In this document: positions 642-10,012 of the stretch, piece by piece
Layout: each line of letters begins with the position of its first letter
Numbering within the stretch: position 1 is the stretch's first letter
NCBI GenBank assembly: GCA_023245955.1
Contig: JAHFJI010000003.1
Span: 1-38,486 of the forward strand
From: Candidatus Doudnabacteria bacterium
GTDB taxonomy: Bacteria; Patescibacteriota; Doudnabacteria; UBA920
Length of the DNA: 38,486 nt
Direction: 5' to 3'
Translations under genes and position numbers: made by a program
The notes under the pieces: model-generated
Database searches by the model: none
The model's input: the letters and a program-made list of their open reading frames with translations, nothing else
What the model was told of the DNA's origin: nothing

Positions 642-1445
642 TTACCTAGCCTTACTCAACAACGCTCGAATAACTTTTTTTGTCGCCTCTATGTTAGCTA
701 CAGACACGTAGTCTACTCCGGTTTTTACCACTGCGTAGTCGTTACCGCCAGGAAATATGGCGTCCCCCACAAAGACCATGTCTTTAATTTTTACCCGTAC
801 GTATTTTTGAATTTGCCGAATGCCGTAGGCTTTGTCGGCTCCTTTTTTTGTAACATCTATAGAAGTAAAACCAGCGGCGTGGACTGCTAAATTGGGTAAA
901 TATTTCTGCATAAGTGTAACTATTCGCATTTTGGTTTTAATATGTTTGCGCCCCCATTGTTCCTTAAGCAACACACCTTTCCTTCCCAGAACAGTAACTG
1001 CATCCTGCCCGAAAACCGAAAAAGTTACTTCGGTCTTGCGGTCTTCTATTAGCTTACCGTAGGTTTTTTTTGGCTCTTTATAACCAATTTCTGCAAACAC
1101 TTTTTCAAATGTCTGTTTAATTTTTACTCGCTGCAACTTTGTAAGTGGGTGGGTGTATACTTGCTGCCACCCATGGTGGTGTTTATAAAATGCTGCAGCT
1201 GTAGTTGGGAACAAAAAAAGATTGTCTAACAAAACTCCCCGGTCAGTTAACTTCCGCAAAAATAAATCCTGGAAAACCGCGTATTTACCCCCACCAATAA
1301 TTGCCACTTTTTTTGTAGCAAGTAATTGGCTAAACAATGTAGCCATTTCTCTGTCCACAGGTGACTTAGTACGTATGAGTGTGCCGTCTAGGTCGAACAC
1401 AATTACTTTTTTTGGCTTAAGTTTTTCTGGATGTGTAACTTTCAT
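642..1445 (-). CDS. HAD-superfamily IIB hydrolase, phosphomannomutase-like
   Basis: FDLDGTL motif I, K-AYGI, and FVGDAIFPGGND motif characteristic of PMM-like HAD IIB enzymes. Confidence 0.88.
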   Translation of the reverse strand: MKVTHPEKLKPKKVIVFDLDGTLIRTKSPVDREMATLFSQLLATKKVAIIGGGKYAVFQDLFLRKLTDRGVLLDNLFLFPTTAAAFYKHHHGWQQVYTHPLTKLQRVKIKQTFEKVFAEIGYKEPKKTYGKLIEDRKTEVTFSVFGQDAVTVLGRKGVLLKEQWGRKHIKTKMRIVTLMQKYLPNLAVHAAGFTSIDVTKKGADKAYGIRQIQKYVRVKIKDMVFVGDAIFPGGNDYAVVKTGVDYVSVANIEATKKVIRALLSKAR

Positions 1446-1549
1446 ATGTAACTGTATGTACTCCGATAATTTTTGACCCTGCTCTATCTACATAAATAGT
1501 ATATACTGCCTTGGCGAAGTTACAAATTTCCTTTACACTATATAATAAT

Positions 1550-1576
1550 ATGTCATTTCAAATTGGCATAGCGTGA
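1550..1576 (+). pseudogene. Orphaned native 5' end of ychF (MSFQIG-IA*) at the left junction
   Basis: ATG TCA TTT CAA ATT GG joins to 8956 onward to give MSFQIGIVGLPNVGKST, a canonical YchF N-terminus. Preceded by TACACT/TATAAT -10-like boxes. Confidence 0.88.
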
Positions 1577-1703
1577 ACACAACCAGACATCTTATTCCAT
1601 TCGAGTTTAATATAAAAATCCCAAACCACATTTGGAAAGTTAATGCCTCCAGGGGCATTACTGGCAAATTTGAGAGGGTTAAACAAAAATAGGCTCTTGT
1701 AGC

Positions 1704-2144
1704 CTATTTTGTTTTATCAGTTGAGGTTAAAATCAATTTCCCTTCGGGTTTAGTCCAATCTGTAAATCTCCACCAATTTGGAACAAACAAGAAGCACACA
1801 TAATTTTCACCAACCGATTTGCCAAGTTTTTCTGGAAATTTGCCATGATAGACATTCTCGTACAAATCAGCTTCGCTATCTTTTATCAACCTAGCTATTC
1901 CATCCATTTGAAAAGTCTTCATATTGGCCTCGTTAGAACCGATAACTATGGATGCTCTGGTTTCTTGTTTACCAAACAATGGTTCGCTTTTTTTATAACG
2001 CTTATCAGTTTCAAAGAAAAACATCAATGGGTCATCTTGATGAGCAAAATGAACAGTTGCAGCATGAGGCGCGCCATCCATCATTTCCACCGCCAAAACA
2101 CAAATTCGTTGACTGGATATGTAATCTAAAATTTCCTTGCTCAT
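1704..2144 (-). CDS. Pyridoxamine 5'-phosphate oxidase-like (FMN-binding split barrel) protein
   Basis: CVLAVEMMDGAPHAATVHF...FFETDKRYKK and QMDGIA patterns fit the PNPOx-like family. Confidence 0.75.
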   Translation of the reverse strand: MSKEILDYISSQRICVLAVEMMDGAPHAATVHFAHQDDPLMFFFETDKRYKKSEPLFGKQETRASIVIGSNEANMKTFQMDGIARLIKDSEADLYENVYHGKFPEKLGKSVGENYVCFLFVPNWWRFTDWTKPEGKLILTSTDKTK

Positions 2145-2599
2145 AAATATGCTTTTAACTTATCAGCGTATGGTTTCTTTTCTTCCATAGTTGGCCAATA
2201 GGTATCTTTATGGTTCAAATAAAGATTGTCATCCTTATATCGAGGATAAATATGAAGATGATAATGCCATACATCTTGATTACCTGCTGGTTCGTTGTGT
2301 TGTCTTGTAGACACCCCATCACATAGATATGCCATTTTGAAAGCGACTGCGATACGCTTTGATAAATCAAAAATTTTATGGCCAATTTCTTCGGGTAAAT
2401 CGTAAAGGTTTTCTATATGTTGATTTGGAACAATAATTACATGGCCTGGATTTGACCTCCACCATTTACCAGCAATAAAGGCCGTTAACAACTCGTCCCT
2501 AAAAACAACGCTGCCTTCTTGGCTTCCATATTCGGTCGGTTCACCCTTGGCAATCTGACATAACGGACAAATATATTTTTGCGGTTCGTGGTTATACAT
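2141..2599 (-). CDS. HIT family hydrolase
   Basis: CPLC N-terminus, GHVIIVP, AGNQDVWHYHLHIYPRY histidine triad. Confidence 0.93.
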   Translation of the reverse strand: MYNHEPQKYICPLCQIAKGEPTEYGSQEGSVVFRDELLTAFIAGKWWRSNPGHVIIVPNQHIENLYDLPEEIGHKIFDLSKRIAVAFKMAYLCDGVSTRQHNEPAGNQDVWHYHLHIYPRYKDDNLYLNHKDTYWPTMEEKKPYADKLKAYL

Positions 2600-2712
2600 A
2601 TGAGAATGATAGCAAAAAATGCCTTTTTAAGCGATTTCTTATCACGAGTCCATAATGTTTACTATTTACCTAGTTTATGACAAAATTAGGGTAATTTTAA
2701 GACCATAACAGC

Positions 2713-4440
2713 ATGAAGCTTATATACCAAAAAGACTATATTTCTATTCACAAGTTCAACCCTATTGAGTTGCCAAATTTTGTTGTCCTTACAGGAGTAA
2801 ATGGTTCAGGCAAAAGCCACTTATTAGAAGCAATTGCTAATAAATCTATAGTCCTAGAAGGGGAAGAAAACGCCAAAGTTATACGATTTGATTATAGAGA
2901 TTTTTATTTAGAAAACGAGGCAGCTTATAATGCCCGTCAAATTATTGACGACAGAACAAATGCTTGGAACTTTTTCCAAAACAATATACAAAACCAAATT
3001 AAATCATTTAGGGATAGCCTTGCTCCTGATTATGAAAAATTAGCTGAAATATCTCGCATAAATTTCAAAAACTTTCTTGACCTAAAAGAAACGGATATTA
3101 ACGAGACGGCTCTTTTTGATAAATATAAACAATATAAAACAAACTTCCGTAATTTCGCTAACCAAGAAAATCATAGAAATAATCAGCAAGCGCTGGGTGT
3201 TTTTCCTATTGCCTATAGTATTCCATATAGCTTGGATGAACTTGAAAAAGAACAGTTTGATTATTTATATAAACCATATCAATTCAAAAATGATTTCTTA
3301 CCTCAACAATTGGGTAAAGTTATTTGGGACTACCAAATAAAATATCGAACAAACGAAATAAATGAATTTGAAAATGAAAAACACGGAAAAAATTACCCTG
3401 TTATTTCCGAAGAGGACTTTATAAAATTACATGGTTCAAAACCTTGGGAAATACTAAACAGTATCCTTGAAAAATTCGGAACGATTGAATATAGATTACC
3501 TTCTCCCGAAGGAAGTGATTATTATAGCGATTTTCAGTTTAGATTGGAGCATCCCAACAAACACTTAAAAATAGATTTTTCGTCCTTGTCTTCTGGTGAA
3601 AAAGTGCTAATGGCACTTGTTGCATCGATATACAAAGCATCTTCTGACCAGCATTTCCCGGACATTTTATTGTTGGATGAAATTGATGCATCACTACATC
3701 CTTCAATGATAAAAAATTTGCTGGACACTATGAACGATATTTTTCTTAAAAATGGGACTAAAGTAATTCTAGTTACTCACTCTCCTACAACCGTAGCCCT
3801 AGCCCCCGAAGACTCAATATATGTTATGAATAAATTGGGAGAAAGTCGTATTGAAAAGAAAAATAGGAACGATGCGTTAAGTATTTTGACCGAAGGTTTT
3901 GCTACCTTAGAAGAAGGTCTTAAAATTTTTGACGAAATAAGTAAACAAGATATATCAATTATTTCCGAAGGTAAAAATGTTGAGTTGATAAAAAAAGCGT
4001 TAGAATTAAACGAGATTAAAGATATTGATGTCATTACTGGTGTAGAGGGAAATTCGGGCGATAGCCAATTAAGAACGATTTTCGATTTTTTATCCAAAAT
4101 CCCTCATCAGAAAAAGGTAATTATTGTTTGGGACTCTGATGTAAAATATATCCTGCAAGCACAAAATAGCACTTATCCCTTCATTTTCCCTGTAAACCCT
4201 GGTAATAAGTTAGCGGAACGAGGAATTGAAAATTTATTTGCCAAAGAATTATTTTCAAATTTTATCACAACTGTGAAAGACTCTAAAGATAAAGAGTTAA
4301 AAAAGTTTGACTCTAACAGAAAGAGTGATTTTGTAAATTTAATTATATCTAGAAATAAAAAAGATGATTTTGCAAACTTTAAGCCTCTATTAGATAAAAT
4401 CGAGGAAATAAGAAAACAAAATGGCAGCTCCAAAGGGTAA
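2713..4440 (+). CDS. ABC-type (AAA_15/AAA_21) ATPase with C-terminal TOPRIM-like domain, OLD-family-like
   Basis: Walker A GVNGSGKS, signature LSSGE, Walker B LLLDE, H-loop VTHSP; downstream ISEGK...VWDSD...GIENLF fit TOPRIM motifs. Confidence 0.8.
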   Translation: MKLIYQKDYISIHKFNPIELPNFVVLTGVNGSGKSHLLEAIANKSIVLEGEENAKVIRFDYRDFYLENEAAYNARQIIDDRTNAWNFFQNNIQNQIKSFRDSLAPDYEKLAEISRINFKNFLDLKETDINETALFDKYKQYKTNFRNFANQENHRNNQQALGVFPIAYSIPYSLDELEKEQFDYLYKPYQFKNDFLPQQLGKVIWDYQIKYRTNEINEFENEKHGKNYPVISEEDFIKLHGSKPWEILNSILEKFGTIEYRLPSPEGSDYYSDFQFRLEHPNKHLKIDFSSLSSGEKVLMALVASIYKASSDQHFPDILLLDEIDASLHPSMIKNLLDTMNDIFLKNGTKVILVTHSPTTVALAPEDSIYVMNKLGESRIEKKNRNDALSILTEGFATLEEGLKIFDEISKQDISIISEGKNVELIKKALELNEIKDIDVITGVEGNSGDSQLRTIFDFLSKIPHQKKVIIVWDSDVKYILQAQNSTYPFIFPVNPGNKLAERGIENLFAKELFSNFITTVKDSKDKELKKFDSNRKSDFVNLIISRNKKDDFANFKPLLDKIEEIRKQNGSSKG

Positions 4441-4750
4441 TACAAACGCTATTGGAAACAGTGGCGGCAAAACAGTTAATGACCGAAAACTGGCTGCTGA
4501 AATCAGAGGCTTAGCCTTAAAGAAAATCAAAGTAATTTTGAAAGGCAAAGAGTCAGAATTTCAGAGGCAGATTTTGTTGCGTCTTGCTGGTAGTGTATTA
4601 CCTCGTCTCAAAGAAGCCGATAGTGTTTACGAACCGCCTATCATAATGTTTGACCCTGCTTTTAAGCCAGTGGTCTTGGAAAAGCGCGTATTAGAAAACA
4701 GAATAATGGATGATGATTTGAGTTCCCAAGCTATGCGAAAACAGCTATAA
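4421..4750 (+). CDS. Hypothetical protein with terminase-small-subunit-like N-terminus
   Basis: MAAPKGNTNAIGNSGG resembles the APKGNxNAxG motif of many phage small terminases; overlaps the upstream stop. Confidence 0.55.
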   Translation: MAAPKGNTNAIGNSGGKTVNDRKLAAEIRGLALKKIKVILKGKESEFQRQILLRLAGSVLPRLKEADSVYEPPIIMFDPAFKPVVLEKRVLENRIMDDDLSSQAMRKQL

Positions 4751-4789
4751 TGTAAATACAATTTAATGCCTAAACCTGTAGTAATATAG

Positions 4790-4938
4790 GCATGGCGCTA
4801 AAAACTCATGACAATACTGAACCCTACGTTCAGCTACTTGTCATGAGTCGTACCTCGAAAGGGGTGCGGGGCTGCAAAGTCCATGCTGGCGTGGGGCTTT
4901 GTGTTCCTGCCAGCGGAAACACTTAAAAGGCATGGACT
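4790..4938 (+). promoter_or_regulatory. Candidate structured leader RNA (multi-stem, GAAA tetraloop, alternative pairing over the start codon)
   Basis: Stems 4804-4814/4838-4848, 4817-4822/4828-4833 and 4849-4856/4861-4868 (GAAA loop). 4878-4886 is complementary to 4930-4938, which contains the ATG. Confidence 0.5.
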
Positions 4939-5324
4939 CAAAACAATTTATAAATGATGAAGTATTAAAAATAGACAATCGTCTATTTTGCGCACGCATT
5001 ATCGGTTACTCTGTTAGTTACTTTTTAATTTCTTGGTGGCTTAACAGCATTAGGACAACTGCCTCACTTTGGATTGTCTGGCCATTGATAATAATCCAAT
5101 TTGTATTATATTTTTCAATTTTTTATACGAGCTATTCGCGTTCAAAGGTTTTTGGTCTCAATAAGACTCTAGCGCTTATTATTTTTGTCGTACTTACTGT
5201 TGTGGGTAGAGTTAATGACTGGGAAGTATTGGTTATACCTCTTTTGGCTGTTGTTATGATTATTCTCTCGTCTCGAAATAAAAAGGTTTCTAAAGAGTGG
5301 CTATCTACTCAATCCGAAAAATAG
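4932..5324 (+). CDS. Small integral membrane protein (about 4 TM)
   Basis: Four hydrophobic segments; start moved to ATG 4932 (MDSKQF), preceded by aaaagg. Confidence 0.7.
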   Translation: MDSKQFINDEVLKIDNRLFCARIIGYSVSYFLISWWLNSIRTTASLWIVWPLIIIQFVLYFSIFYTSYSRSKVFGLNKTLALIIFVVLTVVGRVNDWEVLVIPLLAVVMIILSSRNKKVSKEWLSTQSEK

Positions 5325-5332
5325 CATACTAT

Positions 5333-5599
5333 ATGTCAGAAGACGGAAATTGCACACATGTCAGACAAGGAACTGTAATGATAGGTTATAGTCCTAAAAA
5401 GGACTCCCTATTGTATAAAATGTCAGCCTGCCTCGATTGTGGCCTGTATATGGACTCATTGGGTCATTTGGCTAGTTTTGAGCAGGATGCATCAGAAGAG
5501 CTTGGCAGAGAATGGAAATGGAAAGAAACGCATATGACGGCACAAGAATTGGAGAGTTGGCGACCAGAAGACAATACACGCATAGTCTGTATTCCATAA
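5333..5599 (+). CDS. Hypothetical protein, possible Zn-binding (CxH...CxxC)
   Basis: MSEDGNCTH...ACLDCG; follows the upstream stop by 8 nt. Confidence 0.55.
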   Translation: MSEDGNCTHVRQGTVMIGYSPKKDSLLYKMSACLDCGLYMDSLGHLASFEQDASEELGREWKWKETHMTAQELESWRPEDNTRIVCIP

Positions 5600-5708
5600 A
5601 TCCCTTCCTAATTTGGCCTTATTTGCATGGGTAATTGAGTTTACTCAATGATTTTAGATTATCCCAAATTATCACCAAATGTTAGAATGATTAAAATAAT
5701 ACTTTTCT

Positions 5709-6401
5709 ATGAGGTTAAAGTATTCAAAATCTAACGAGCTGTGGCATCGGATTATTGTAAGAAAAAAGGTGCGGGAGCTGGTCGAAAAATTCCGAACAGA
5801 ATGGAACATACCTAAGTATGGTTTTGACGATGAAGAAAAAACAAAAAAATTCATGCTTGAAAATAGAGGAAAATTTTGGAAGCCTCTCAATGAATACATT
5901 AAGCAGTGCAGAGAGGATATAAGTTTTCCAAATGATGCTCAATTTCAATATGAAATGATATGGCATTTTATCAATGGCCACGCAGACGGCGAAGGATTAA
6001 ATTTCACTGGATGCGATTTAGATTTGAGCAACTACAACAAAGATGGGACAATTGCTATTAAAATTGGTGTTAATTCAACCGCGGAAGATGTAAAAGATTT
6101 TATAAATAGCAAAAAAGGCTTCATTGTCGCATTGCAAAAAGATTATAGGAAAAAACACAATCTTAAAACTTCAAAAATTAGGAGCAGTAATAACAGGAGT
6201 AGGGATGCTTTAATTTATTACTTTGCTCAAAGACCAATAAATGAACTTTACCAAGCTGTCTTAAACAAAGACCCTGATTATGTCAGGCCTGGTTATAAAG
6301 AAGCAATCATAAAGAAACTTTTAGAAGAATTTAGGATAAAAATTAACGATACAGAAATCAAAATGATAATAAGTCGTCAAAGAAAACTACGAGACAAGTA
6401 A
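5709..6401 (+). CDS. Hypothetical protein (230 aa), basic C-terminus possibly DNA-binding
   Basis: Long ORF in AT-rich DNA followed by terminator-like hairpins; no family recognised. Confidence 0.7.
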   Translation: MRLKYSKSNELWHRIIVRKKVRELVEKFRTEWNIPKYGFDDEEKTKKFMLENRGKFWKPLNEYIKQCREDISFPNDAQFQYEMIWHFINGHADGEGLNFTGCDLDLSNYNKDGTIAIKIGVNSTAEDVKDFINSKKGFIVALQKDYRKKHNLKTSKIRSSNNRSRDALIYYFAQRPINELYQAVLNKDPDYVRPGYKEAIIKKLLEEFRIKINDTEIKMIISRQRKLRDK

Positions 6402-6456
6402 CACTTATGTTGTCTACATAAGTGTAGGTATATTGCAGTTTCAATATCGTGTTTAA

Positions 6457-6485
6457 TAAATCCATAGTGAAGACTATGGTTTTTT
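6457..6485 (+). terminator. Putative intrinsic terminator
   Basis: ccatagt-gaag-actatgg followed by a T run. Confidence 0.55.
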
Positions 6486-6497
6486 AATTTCATAGAT

Positions 6498-6570
6498 TTC
6501 CTGAGGTAAATCCCGCTAGGGATTTGGACAGCCCAACCTCAGGAACTGTCCAAGTCCTCAGCGGCATTTA
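6498..6570. other. Non-coding hairpin with loop-pairing (pseudoknot or switch potential)
   Basis: 6507-6531 pairs with 6546-6570; loop segment acctcaggaa (6536-6545) is the perfect complement of ttcctgaggt (6498-6507). Confidence 0.55.
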
Positions 6571-7003
6571 TTTTACTCTTACAGCTTAAATCTAGGCTTT
6601 AAGCGCAAGGTAAATCCTTGCGTCGCCCCAATCTCTACGAGATAGCCTGCGGACGATAAATGGCAGGTGGCAAGTGTGCCAGATAACGGAATACTCATCT
6701 GTTGCAGACAAAGGCAACGAGCGAAGCGTTAATCTTCGCCGCCGAATATCACAACATTATTACCAGATTACTACATAAATAAGAATGGACTGCAAAGATA
6801 GGAAACGGCTCGTGGGTGGTGGGGCTAAGTAAGACAATAGCAAAACAATATGCGAAACAAGCACTACAAAACTAAATGTTTTAGATTATCCGATGAAATT
6901 TCGGCGGAGCTTAAAGCATCACGAGAACTATCGAAGTTATCTTGGAACTTATATTTCAAAGCAATGCTCAAAAAAGCACAAAAGCAAAATAGGGATAACA
7001 AGC

Positions 7004-7153
7004 ATGAGAAAGAAGCCAAAAAATAAGTTAAAACTGCCTGAACTTGATTATATCTTTTCAGACAAGAATGCCCAGCGTCTCAACGCCGCTTTTGATATTA
7101 TATTTGAAGAAACTCTAAAGACTTTTGGTAATTTGACAACTAAGAACAATTAG
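7004..7153 (+). CDS. Small hypothetical protein (49 aa) upstream of the xis-int pair
   Basis: MRKKPKNKLKLPELDYIFSDKNAQRLNAAFDIIFEETL; internal ATG of ORF 6893-7153 preferred. Confidence 0.5.
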   Translation: MRKKPKNKLKLPELDYIFSDKNAQRLNAAFDIIFEETLKTFGNLTTKNN

Positions 7154-7168
7154 GAATATAATAACTTC

Positions 7169-7348
7169 ATGGAATTTATGACCTTAGAACAAGTGGCCAA
7201 ATACTTTGGGGTTCACCCTCGCACTGTTATGCGCTGGCTTCAACAGGGTAGTCTTAAGGGCTATAAGTTGGGCAAAGGCAAAACTGCCCTACTTCGTATA
7301 CCTAAAATTGAGGTTAAAAGATTTTTAGATAAACACAAAATAAAATGA
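7169..7348 (+). CDS. Excisionase-like MerR/HTH_17 DNA-binding protein (59 aa; not in ORF track)
   Basis: Translated by hand: MEFMTLEQVAKYFGVHPRTVMRWLQQGSLKGYKLGKGKTALLRIPKIEVKRFLDKHKIK*; ATGA overlap with the integrase start. Confidence 0.9.
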   Translation: MEFMTLEQVAKYFGVHPRTVMRWLQQGSLKGYKLGKGKTALLRIPKIEVKRFLDKHKIK

Positions 7349-8997
7349 ACCTGACAATCGAAAAACCAATTAAGTTGATTGCTACCTACGCTCGTGTATC
7401 TGATAACCCTGATGAAGAAGAAGGAAGTATAAAAAATCAGGCAATGACTTTTAACGAACTTGCCGAAAAAAATAACTGGCAGATAGTCGAAGAGTATAAA
7501 GACGACGATTGGAGCGGCGATTTTTTAGAGCGACCTGCGCTTGATAAACTGCGCCTTGATGCAAAGAATAAAAACAAGGTTTGGGAAGCCGTGCTTATTT
7601 ATGACCCCGACCGATTAGCTCGCCGTTATTCCTACCAAGAACTTGTAATGGATGAATTAAAAGAAGCAGGGGTGGAAGTTATATTTGTAACTGTTCAAGC
7701 TCCAAAAAACCAGGAAGATAAAATTTTGCATGGAGTTAGAGGGTTGTTTGCCGAATATGAAAGAGCCAAAATAGCTGAAAGATTTAGACTTGGTAAACTT
7801 CGCAAAGTCAGAGAAGGTCATATTCTAACAACTAAACCTTTGTATGGTTATAATTACATTCGCAACAACAAAGAAACCAAGCAACACGGATATTATGTTA
7901 TTGAACCAGGTGAGGCCAAAGTTGTTAAAATGATATTTTCTTGGGTAGCTAATGACGGCCTGACATTGAGAACGATTGTAAAGAAACTTCAACTTCTCGG
8001 CATTAAGCCACGCAACAGCAAGCGAGGTGTATGGAATACAAGCACACTTAGCACAATGTTACGACATAGAGGATACATAGGTGAAGCGCACTATGGAGCT
8101 TCTTATGCAGTCGTTCCTGAAAATCCACTCAAAAATGAAAAGTATAAAAAATTAAAAAAGACCAGTCGCAGATTAAGACCAAAAGAAGAATGGATAATAG
8201 TTCCCATTCCCCCACTCATCCAACCAGATATGTTTGAACAAGCTGGTAATAGATTAAAAGAAAATTTTGCTTTGTGCCAGAGAAACAGAAAAAACGAATA
8301 CTTACTTGCCAACAAAATATATTGTGCCTGTGGCAAGCATAGACACGGAGAAGGATATTATAATAAACCCAATCGGTATTACCGTTGTGATGACAGAGTG
8401 TTAAATTTTCCACTTCCTGCTCAATGTAAAGAAAAAGGTGTTAATGCTGTTTTGGCCGATAAACTTGTTTGGAACAAAATTTCAGGCTTAATGAGCTCAC
8501 CAGAATTGATGAAAGAACAAGTAAGTCGTTGGTTTAAGGGCAGACAAACAAAAGCTCAATCAGAACTAGTTGATACACAGGCTTTAGAAAAAGAGAAGCA
8601 AAAACTATCTGAACAAATGGAACGCTACAATAAGGGTTATGGGGCAGGCATATTCGACCTAGAGCAGTTAAGGGCATACATCTCTCCTCTTAGGCAAAGG
8701 ATGGCTCAAATCGATAACCAAATCGTAACTGCAAAAAATCATCTTAGCCAAACACAATTAGAAGAGCCCAATAAGCAACAAATGGAGAACTTCGCAGAGA
8801 AAGCAAAGAAGACCTTGCAGGGCTTGAAATTTGAAGCTAAAAGAGAGATAATAGTCAATACTGTCGAGAAAGTTATAGCTACTAAACAATTCTTAAAAGT
8901 AACGGGCTTCGTCCCAGTCACTAATCCAAATGTCCAGTTCATCTCACTCCATCGGAATTGTGGGGTTGCCGAATGTTGGCAAGTCTACCCTCTTTAA
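7345..8997 (+). CDS. Large serine recombinase (integrase)
   Basis: YARVS catalytic Ser, RPALDKL, DRLAR, recombinase domain (YGY...YIG), Zn ribbon CACG...YYRC...C and coiled coil. Last 13 aa are read from ychF DNA in another frame. Confidence 0.96.
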   Translation: MNLTIEKPIKLIATYARVSDNPDEEEGSIKNQAMTFNELAEKNNWQIVEEYKDDDWSGDFLERPALDKLRLDAKNKNKVWEAVLIYDPDRLARRYSYQELVMDELKEAGVEVIFVTVQAPKNQEDKILHGVRGLFAEYERAKIAERFRLGKLRKVREGHILTTKPLYGYNYIRNNKETKQHGYYVIEPGEAKVVKMIFSWVANDGLTLRTIVKKLQLLGIKPRNSKRGVWNTSTLSTMLRHRGYIGEAHYGASYAVVPENPLKNEKYKKLKKTSRRLRPKEEWIIVPIPPLIQPDMFEQAGNRLKENFALCQRNRKNEYLLANKIYCACGKHRHGEGYYNKPNRYYRCDDRVLNFPLPAQCKEKGVNAVLADKLVWNKISGLMSSPELMKEQVSRWFKGRQTKAQSELVDTQALEKEKQKLSEQMERYNKGYGAGIFDLEQLRAYISPLRQRMAQIDNQIVTAKNHLSQTQLEEPNKQQMENFAEKAKKTLQGLKFEAKREIIVNTVEKVIATKQFLKVTGFVPVTNPNVQFISLHRNCGVAECWQVYPL

Positions 8998-10012
8998 CGC
9001 CATTACTAAGAGTAAGGTTGAAGCTGCCAACTACCCTTTTGCGACCATAGACCCAAATGTGGGCGTGGTTAGCGTACCCGACGAACGGTTAGCAAAACTG
9101 GCCGAGCTAGAAAAAAGTGAAAAAATAGTCCCTACAACAATTGAGTTTGTAGACATTGCAGGCCTTGTTAGTGGTGCCCACAAAGGCGAAGGTCTGGGCA
9201 ACCAGTTCCTCTCTCACATTCGCGAAGTAGACGCTATTATGGAAGTGGTACGAGTGTTTGAGAACGATGACATTATCCATGTATCGGGTAAGGTAGACCC
9301 GGTAAGTGATATGGAAACCATAGCCATAGAACTGCAACTCGCCGATCTACAAACCGTAGACAAGAGGCTGGAGTCCGTAGCCAAACAAGCAAAAACCGGT
9401 GACAGAGAGTTTATAGTGAAAAAACAAGTCTTGGAAAAGTACAAAGCTGCACTAGAAACCGGACAAATGGCCAACACAGTTGTGCTTACAGAAGAAGAAA
9501 AAGCTAATAGCAAAGACACCCAGCTACTCACAAATAAACCCTTCCTCTACATCGCCAACTCAGAGTTTGATATGTCACATAAGACCTATACGTCATATAC
9601 GACCAATAGGAAGGATATGATTCCAGTGGATGCAAAGCTTGAGAGCGAACTCTCAGAGCTAACAGACGAAGAACGTGCAGAGTACCTCTCTGAGCTCGGC
9701 CTACCCGAAAGCGGACTAGATAAAATTATCAAAGAAGCCTACAAAACTCTGGGCCTTATCACTTTCATTACCGCCGGACCTAAAGAAAGTAAAGCCTGGA
9801 CTTGCATCAATGGCTCCAAAGCACCTCAGGCCGCAGGCAAGATACACACCGACTTTGAAAAAGGGTTCATCCGCGCGGAAGTTATCCAGTGGGACAAACT
9901 CCTAGAAGCCAACGGGTATGTAGGTGCAAAAGAGCGAGGCTGGCTTCGCGTAGAAGGCAAAGAGTATATCGTCCAAGACGGCGACGTGGTGCATTTTCGG
10001 TTTAATGTATAG
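8930..10012 (+). CDS. ychF: Redox-regulated ATPase YchF (Obg family)
   Basis: GIVGLPNVGKSTLFN, ANYPFATIDPN, DIAGLV, GEGLGNQFL, TGS domain AAGKIHTDFEKGFIRAE. Confidence 0.98.
   Translation: MSSSSHSIGIVGLPNVGKSTLFNAITKSKVEAANYPFATIDPNVGVVSVPDERLAKLAELEKSEKIVPTTIEFVDIAGLVSGAHKGEGLGNQFLSHIREVDAIMEVVRVFENDDIIHVSGKVDPVSDMETIAIELQLADLQTVDKRLESVAKQAKTGDREFIVKKQVLEKYKAALETGQMANTVVLTEEEKANSKDTQLLTNKPFLYIANSEFDMSHKTYTSYTTNRKDMIPVDAKLESELSELTDEERAEYLSELGLPESGLDKIIKEAYKTLGLITFITAGPKESKAWTCINGSKAPQAAGKIHTDFEKGFIRAEVIQWDKLLEANGYVGAKERGWLRVEGKEYIVQDGDVVHFRFNV
9570..9619 (+). repeat. 9-bp periodic repeat inside the ychF coding sequence
   Basis: atatgtcac/ataagacct/atacgtcat/atacgacca/ataggaagg/atatg; related array on the minus strand at 14760-14800. 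Confidence 0.6.

Follow-up and report, generated by a model that had tools for sequence, protein, structure and literature searches.

A predicted large serine recombinase gene straddles its own attP in a family of ychF-targeting islands

The window analysed here is the whole of a 38,486-nucleotide stretch of DNA from Candidatus Doudnabacteria (assembly GCA_023245955.1, contig JAHFJI010000003.1, forward strand). An integrative island of these tiny groundwater bacteria lies in it, seated at codon 6 of the GTPase gene ychF and spanning positions 1565–8955 (an insertion of 7,389 bp). The last gene of the island (7345–8997, forward strand; 550 amino acids in the integrated form) encodes a putative large serine recombinase (LSR), which we call the integrase. 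This gene crosses the right junction of the island and ends in host sequence. At the opposite end of the island lies an orphan module (1567–1692, forward strand) that comprises the last 41 codons and stop codon of the integrase, and is joined to the rest of the gene only in the excised, attP form.

The island and its repaired target gene

The island has a GC content of 0.30–0.41 in most 500-nucleotide bins, compared with 0.43–0.48 in the flanks. At its left end it has displaced the start of ychF (1550–1576, forward strand), of which the ATG, four codons and a GG (1550–1566) are left; these open an eight-codon leader open reading frame (ORF) that continues into the island and whose TGA overlaps a GTG in the frame of the orphan module. 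At its right end ychF is rebuilt (8930–10012, forward strand; 360 amino acids, with Pfam matches to YchF-GTPase_C and MMR_HSR1). The rebuilt gene consists of an island ATG and seven island codons, followed by host sequence from the GG onwards, with the P-loop resuming at 8956. Because the island supplies the start codon, ychF remains intact, and it now lies downstream of an operon formed by the integrase and a small HTH_17 gene.

Among relatives, 10 of 11 ychF genes begin with MSFQIG or MSFKIG and continue with IVGLPNVGKS, and the eleventh, which lies at a contig edge, has a start of the island type. A reading of the window from its sequence alone (hereafter the sequence-only reading) had expected such a start in relatives, next to a gene for a HAD-family hydrolase. 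The start was found; the hydrolase gene adjoins ychF in 3 of 10 empty sites of relatives, and its position is uninformative. In the window this host gene forms the left flank (642–1445, reverse strand; Pfam Hydrolase_3 and PMM) and lies divergently, 104 bp from the orphan ychF ATG.

One locus of the same genus (L007, on G002:C15) has an island-type ychF start within its first 50 bases, 23 nucleotides from the contig edge. A search of that genome at E 1e-30 with this integrase as the query gave no match, and its island was probably left unassembled.

The integrase gene is partitioned at attP

Codons 1–537 of the integrase (7345–8955, forward strand) form the body of the protein, which includes the catalytic domain, the recombinase domain, the zinc ribbon with its coiled coil, a last beta-hairpin and the start of a linker. 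The remaining 13 codons and stop codon of the integrated form (8956–8997, forward strand) are host-derived and are read in the +1 frame of the ychF P-loop. Pfam assigns a Resolvase domain (8e-28) and a Recombinase domain (PF07508, 7e-18, above its cut-off), together with a weak Zn_ribbon_recom match of 21.8 bits, which is below the cut-off of 25.3. Across an alignment of 40 integrase sequences, Y15, R17 and S19 are invariant, as are the four zinc-ribbon cysteines C323, C325, C344 and C357. A resolvase-type catalytic domain with its serine motif, a recombinase domain, a zinc ribbon with coiled coil, and short att sites mark the product as an LSR, as judged from sequence and model, and it is predicted to catalyse attP × attB recombination.

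When the two ends of the island are rejoined in silico at the GG, the integrase frame stays open for 41 more codons, to a TAG at 1690–1692, and the gene reaches 578 codons; the other two frames across the rejoined junction close immediately. The crossover falls in codon 537, within a linker that is predicted to be disordered. These counts and coordinates, and that of the 13-residue integrated end, agree with the sequence-only reading, which had placed attP inside the integrase ORF and held that integration swaps the C terminus of the enzyme: the protein encoded in the free state is not the one encoded after integration.

The attachment sites can be delimited closely. At the left junction, attL (1545–1592) consists of the host B arm, the GG core (1565–1566) and the island P′ arm (1567–1592), which carries a conserved outer motif; at the right, attR (8928–8975) consists of the island P arm (8928–8953), the GG core (8954–8955) and the host B′ arm. 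The P arm doubles as coding sequence for the integrase linker and for the start of the rebuilt ychF, and the P′ arm is conserved in the five relatives for which both island ends are available. A recount of the symmetry of the attP arms returned the previously reported 16 of 26 matching positions, against a background mean of 6.6 (s.d. 2.3; z = 4.1), and a symmetry of 16 is reached by 16 of the 38,426 centres in the window. The rebuilt attP is approximately 50 bp in length, with the GG flanked on each side, 14 bp away, by 10-bp inverted repeats of the ATGTC...GACAT type.

A natural junction of this form occurs in L080, a 2.2-kb metagenome contig that is collinear (by BLAST) with the right end of the island up to its position 766 and with the left end from position 759. 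In its junction, 14 bp on either side separate the GG from the two halves of a perfect 10-bp inverted repeat. Immediately after the GG the contig has the base of attL and not that of attR, and immediately before the GG it has that of attR; the exchange is thus confined to the GG, as the sequence-only reading had supposed. Together, L080 and a comparison between the attL and attR sequences show the two-base asymmetric crossover and attP of about 50 bp that are typical of LSRs. The A118 integrase also has a GG core and a 50-bp attP, and in that system palindromic cores lose orientation. L080 could derive from a circle or from a tandem array, and in either case has the form of the substrate.

A crossover at the AT that lies 3 bp to the right of the GG would also keep both frames; it was excluded by the base that follows the GG in L080. 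Symmetry about this alternative centre is 6 of 26, and the loss of orientation by palindromic cores in A118 also counts against it.

One of the public sequencing runs that hold this DNA (X1) contains a 58-nucleotide contig of higher depth that matches window positions 1509–1566, its end coinciding with the final base of the GG. Reads diverging at this point would give such an end, but nothing was inferred from an assembled contig.

The detached module is under purifying selection

An open frame of 41 codons could arise by chance, and the sequence-only reading had proposed conservation of the orphan tail, with a ratio of nonsynonymous to synonymous substitution rates (dN/dS) below 1, as a check. 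When junctions were rebuilt for the window and its relatives, the integrase frame was open for 41–52 codons in all six, and the other frames were closed in five of the six. The orphan tail is open in all 12 integrated islands compared, namely that of the window, those of five relatives with 20 kb of context and six loci found by a peptide search. These tails share a motif, IPFxFxIK, which is followed by prolines.

Substitutions were counted solely beyond the attP arm, where DNA binding cannot account for conservation. Within a close subgroup of four orphan tails and one contiguous tail, Nei–Gojobori dN/dS was 0.04–0.21 at dS values of 0.26–0.78. Between the tail of the window and that of its nearest relative (L051), dN is 0.27 and synonymous sites are saturated. 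Because the frame is open in every junction, the motif is common and dN/dS is low, the tail reads as a working coding region under purifying selection and not as a chance open frame, and it passed the proposed check.

A widespread family at the same site

The arrangement recurs far beyond this genome. Within the same order, 18 close homologues of the integrase were found (53–74% identity), and each adjoins ychF in the same register, with an island-supplied ATG and an integrase frame that reads on into the P-loop. The same fusion to ychF occurs in 22 of 32 metagenome loci and in 50 of 77 loci from a collection with one genome per species, mostly in Patescibacteria lineages; approximately 11 of these 77 loci carry a contiguous integrase. 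Of the 120 best database homologues, 11 have a contiguous tail, about 106 end in P-loop read-through (judged by eye from the printed ends) and three are odd. A scan of viral_contigs with P0031, a full-length homologue, found no relative.

After the removal of duplicates, related genomes and metagenomes provided 85 distinct ychF sites. At least 480 open integrase codons lie upstream of ychF at 72 of them, where an intact integrase body is fused to the host gene; 6 sites run off a contig and 7 have fewer than 480 open codons. One of these seven is unoccupied and another is just three codons short, so that about five occupied sites are clearly disrupted in the integrase. Among 71 intact integrated copies, the island ATG, which is part of the P-arm repeat, is present in 70 and lies eight codons ahead of the G codon in 61.

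The host-derived end of the integrase varies from 5 to 62 residues (median 13) in these 71 copies. It is a variable read-through of the ychF +1 frame with no conserved feature. The sequence-only reading had proposed two state-specific isoforms with a host-donated tail; the two isoforms stand, whereas the donated tail does not hold up as a feature in its own right.

Five relatives for which both ends are available have islands of 7.0–7.7 kb with the same junctions. In four further loci (L062, L066, L077 and L079) the distance from tail to integrase implies islands of approximately 9–11 kb; the size of the cargo varies and both ends are conserved. The integrase of the L051 island is decayed. Two records of the same place (L087 and L023) have an in-frame TGA within the integrase body, with 310 open codons upstream of the junction, which may reflect either decay or recoding.

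Contiguous full-length copies occur in records from Bradyrhizobium, Alphaproteobacteria, Limisphaerales, Omnitrophota and Bacteroidota (L085, L086, L103, L104, L107, L113, L131 and L153). They lie on large contigs (up to 2.25 Mb), with no ychF within 6 kb. Among contiguous loci, a GG-centred ATGTC...GACAT site in the same linker is the most symmetric of the gene in 7 of 13, and the second or third most symmetric in two. On this sequence evidence, the placement of the site within the gene may be ancestral to the whole clade.

Predicted structure and docking of the tail

An AlphaFold2 model of P0031 (mean predicted local distance difference test (pLDDT) 74; predicted template modelling score (pTM) 0.39) has long helices at residues 364–502 that form the coiled coil, a beta-hairpin at 503–520, disorder at 523–544 and three short strands at 547–579, for which pLDDT block means are 60–81. 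Residues encoded by attP fall within the disordered stretch, so the linker carries the sequence constraints of attP. Foldseek matched the model to the SPbeta, phiC31, Bxb1 and LI integrase–DNA complexes (E values of 1e-20 to 1e-12), and a sequence search of the PDB returned matches in the catalytic domain only.

We predicted the complex of the body (residues 1–522) and the tail (540–580) as two separate chains. The pair scored 0.63 and the best of three controls scored 0.00; the two chains are parts of one polypeptide, and such cases tend to pass. Of the solved complexes, 58 of 80 reach the mark used for these scores, as do 2 of 110 mismatched pairs; an alignment of our own was used, so these counts are approximate. 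At least 74% of contacts agreed between runs, and the pLDDT of the partner was at least 61. The predicted contacts lie on residues 509–521, 360–392 and 471–476, with the strand that bears the conserved motif pairing with the last strand of the body (509–521); 360–392 and 471–476 are the start and the return of the coiled coil. The predicted docking surface of the tail thus comprises the last beta-hairpin and the base of the coiled coil.

The extreme C terminus of the SPbeta integrase occupies a pocket by the inter-hinge helix and contacts the recombination directionality factor (RDF), and it has been described as a possible toggle; it is essential for excision and largely dispensable for integration. 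In phiC31, the extreme C terminus is part of the surface that binds the directionality factor. Taken with the docking prediction, these roles suggest that integration removes a piece of the enzyme that is predicted to sit at a point at which directionality is set.

Expression layout at the two junctions

The integrase is preceded by a gene for a 59-amino-acid HTH_17 protein (7169–7348, forward strand; Pfam HTH_17, 3e-13, with matches to PHROG excisionase families), the stop codon of which overlaps the integrase ATG. A homologue of this gene ends no more than 120 nucleotides from the integrase start at 89 of 122 integrase N termini (duplicate places included). Its product is a candidate directionality factor or regulator. 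A pattern match to a sigma-70 promoter lies ahead of the operon (7133–7162, forward strand), with 12 of 12 consensus positions across both hexamers and an 18-nucleotide spacer.

Transcription of the operon in the free form would pass attP and the tail and reach a terminator-like hairpin astride the tail stop codon (1686–1710, forward strand), which would be the integrase terminator of the circle. We considered such a hairpin as a trait of the family and set it aside, as only 4 of 14 tails examined have one. In the integrated form, the operon leads into ychF with no terminator before it.

At the left junction, a second pattern match, in this case to 10 of 12 consensus positions, marks a possible native ychF promoter (1519–1546, forward strand) that faces the orphan ychF fragment and the tail. 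In 7 of 10 attL junctions, the eight-codon leader ends in a TGA that shares one base with a start codon (ATG or GTG) at the third codon of the tail (in the window, with the leader at 1550–1576, and in L042, L043, L047, L051, L057 and L062). This is a layout for termination and reinitiation that could, judging by the sequence, allow the tail to be expressed separately; the overlap lies within the conserved P′ arm and may be without meaning.

Integration as a change of integrase form

The window contains an island of 7.4 kb that belongs to a large family targeting ychF, in which the LSR gene straddles its own attP, and we think it probable that integration detaches and excision restores the C-terminal module. 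Integration would leave the 41 module codons and the terminator-like hairpin at the attL end, beside the orphaned start of ychF. It would fuse the integrase body to out-of-frame ychF codons, giving the protein a short non-conserved end, and would hand ychF a new start codon from the P-arm repeat; excision would restore the full-length gene of 578 codons. The gene sequences indicate that a conserved C-terminal module, 41–52 residues long, is lost in one state and regained in the other, giving two state-specific isoforms.

What this loss might do is a separate matter. The free element may make an integration-proficient, full-length enzyme, and the integrated form may be altered in directionality control, either dependent on the HTH_17 protein or differently responsive. 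By analogy and from the model, we regard such a switch as a possibility that falls somewhat short of an even chance; it becomes more plausible because of the predicted docking site and the published role of the SPbeta C terminus.

Several points weigh against our interpretation. The evidence consists of genomic end states (empty sites, integrated islands and one natural attP junction), and no recombination activity, transcript or protein was observed. The one natural junction may belong to a tandem array, and the contiguous copies lie in large chromosomal contigs of other phyla, so contiguity alone proves no free circle. Neither a circular-junction nor an empty-site joint was found in the assembled contigs, which cannot reveal rare forms, of two public runs that hold this DNA, one of them possibly its source. 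The tail matches no Pfam family, and its language-model look-alikes in a protein atlas scored just 0.84–0.85, with one DUF4368 cluster, which is too weak a lead to use. The pTM of the P0031 model is low and confidence in its tail is moderate. Finally, the C terminus that SPbeta needs for excision is here missing in the very state that must excise, and this precedent, taken literally, would predict poor excision by the truncated form.

One rival account is that integration is suicidal, with a truncated integrase that is inactive and integrated copies that are dead ends unless the full-length enzyme is supplied, the family persisting through a free or otherwise carried attP form. SSV-family integrases, which hold the recombination site in their ORF, do disrupt their own gene on integration, and the requirement for the SPbeta C terminus in excision fits as well. 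Integrated copies outnumber contiguous ones (50 compared with about 11 of 77 species-collection loci, and about 106 compared with 11 of the 120 best homologues), and the L051 integrase has decayed. We nonetheless consider this unlikely. The body keeps at least 480 open codons at 72 of 85 sites, with about five disrupted, despite synonymous divergence above 0.5 between copies, and most islands keep the excisionase-like HTH_17 gene; near-universal intact bodies and the retained excisionase-like gene speak against simple decay. The loss, moreover, is limited to 41–52 residues past a flexible linker and removes no catalytic or DNA-binding domain. Alternatively, the overlap could be a by-product of target repair, in which the need for the P arm to supply a ychF start is all that places attP over the 3′ end of the integrase gene, the module is dispensable and both forms behave alike. 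The C-terminal ends of serine integrases vary, and the host-derived ends in this family are variable read-through. The island ATG lies within the P-arm repeat in 70 of 71 intact copies, and islands commonly regenerate the gene they split (PMC4383910). This account leaves unexplained the purifying selection that acts on the tail beyond attP, the retention of the motif across phyla in contiguous genes, the prediction that the tail docks specifically and the attP-like site in the same linker even in copies away from ychF, and it appears distinctly unlikely.

A further possibility is a split enzyme. The body would be made from the island promoter and the orphan tail as a separate peptide of 39–50 residues from the ychF start signals, by reinitiation at the TGA/GTG; the tail would then dock on the truncated integrase in trans and license or block excision, so that host expression of ychF gates mobility. 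In its favour, 7 of 10 attL junctions show the leader TGA overlapping a start codon, the two-chain prediction has the tail binding the body (0.63 compared with 0.00 for the best control) and the native promoter-like site of ychF is retained. The stop/start overlap lies inside the P′ arm, however, where integrase binding alone may explain its conservation; it is missing in the other three junctions, and the two-chain prediction used parts of one polypeptide and was prone to pass. We judge the split enzyme, both in outline and in this detailed form, to be very unlikely. An assembly artefact or a chance open frame can almost certainly be dismissed: the window does derive from a metagenome-assembled genome in 84 contigs, but these junctions turn up in dozens of assemblies and collections made independently, all six rebuilt junctions have an open frame, and a contiguous junction occurs naturally.

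Relation to known systems

Compared with large serine integrases such as A118/LI, SPbeta SprA, phiC31 and Bxb1, the island integrase has the same domain order and fold. Its attP likewise measures about 50 bp and carries imperfect inverted repeats, and its attB shows little symmetry; the asymmetric core is two bases long (GG, as it is in A118), and the target is a protein-coding gene. The integrase differs in that attP lies inside its own reading frame, that a conserved module is lost and restored, and that the P arm contains a start codon. The closest parallels are found in archaeal tyrosine integrases of the SSV type and in mycobacteriophage repressors whose genes span attP. In the SSV type (SSV1 and pT26-2), the site also lies in the integrase ORF, the gene is partitioned on integration and the full-length gene exists only in the free element. 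Those enzymes use tyrosine chemistry, come from archaeal hosts and leave two inactive pseudogenes, whereas here the last 41–52 residues are detached from a body ORF that stays intact. The integrase shares the partitioned gene with this type, but as a serine recombinase that has no tyrosine catalytic domain it is not a member.

In the integration-dependent immunity of mycobacteriophages BPs and Brujita, attP likewise lies within a gene, and the host junction sets a shorter C terminus in the prophage, with a functional effect. The gene that is split there encodes the repressor, the integrase is of the tyrosine type and what is lost is a degradation tag and not a folded module; in the window it is the integrase gene that is split, and no repressor gene spans attP. 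The 'molecular toggle switch' at the C terminus of SPbeta SprA is a short segment that affects directionality from its place at the coiled-coil base, next to the inter-hinge helix, and the tail here is predicted to lie in the equivalent region. The SprA segment is permanent, whereas the island module is state-dependent, and the two are alike by predicted position and not by established homology. Islands in tRNA genes (tDNA), as catalogued in Islander, also replace the displaced end of their target gene, with the displaced fragment marking the other end of the island; in this family it is a protein-coding GTPase gene that is split, at its 5′ end, and the replacement shares sequence with the integrase frame.

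Within the available parts of the literature covered (including PMC9203015, PMC9934374 and PMC10083194), no serine integrase gene spanning attP and no ychF target is described; members of the family may appear in Supplementary Table 1 of PMC10083194. Among serine recombinases of bacteria, the island integrase would be the first counterpart to the archaeal gene-splitting integrases, with a milder and possibly regulatory outcome. The natural pair of proteins makes testable how integration is discriminated from excision, and what role variable C-terminal ends have. There is also a practical consequence: integrases harvested from integrated elements of the ychF family carry the wrong, host-derived C terminus, and obtaining the true enzyme requires the rebuilt attP.

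Cargo

Between the two ends of the island, the cargo region (1704–7153) encodes a PNPOx-like protein (1704–2144, reverse strand), a HIT-family protein (2141–2599, reverse strand), an ABC-type ATPase of 575 amino acids (2713–4440, forward strand) and several ORFs with no assigned family. No phage structural or conjugation genes were recognised in the cargo, and no partner nuclease was recognised for the ATPase. The HIT-family protein matches ThsC, and the ATPase matches the defence ATPases mad3, AriA, AbiLi and PtuA (E values of 1e-25 to 1e-17). From these matches, the element may be a small defence island, and the family adds a widespread and precisely mapped island with a likely defence cargo to the mobile elements of Patescibacteria, which are poorly known.

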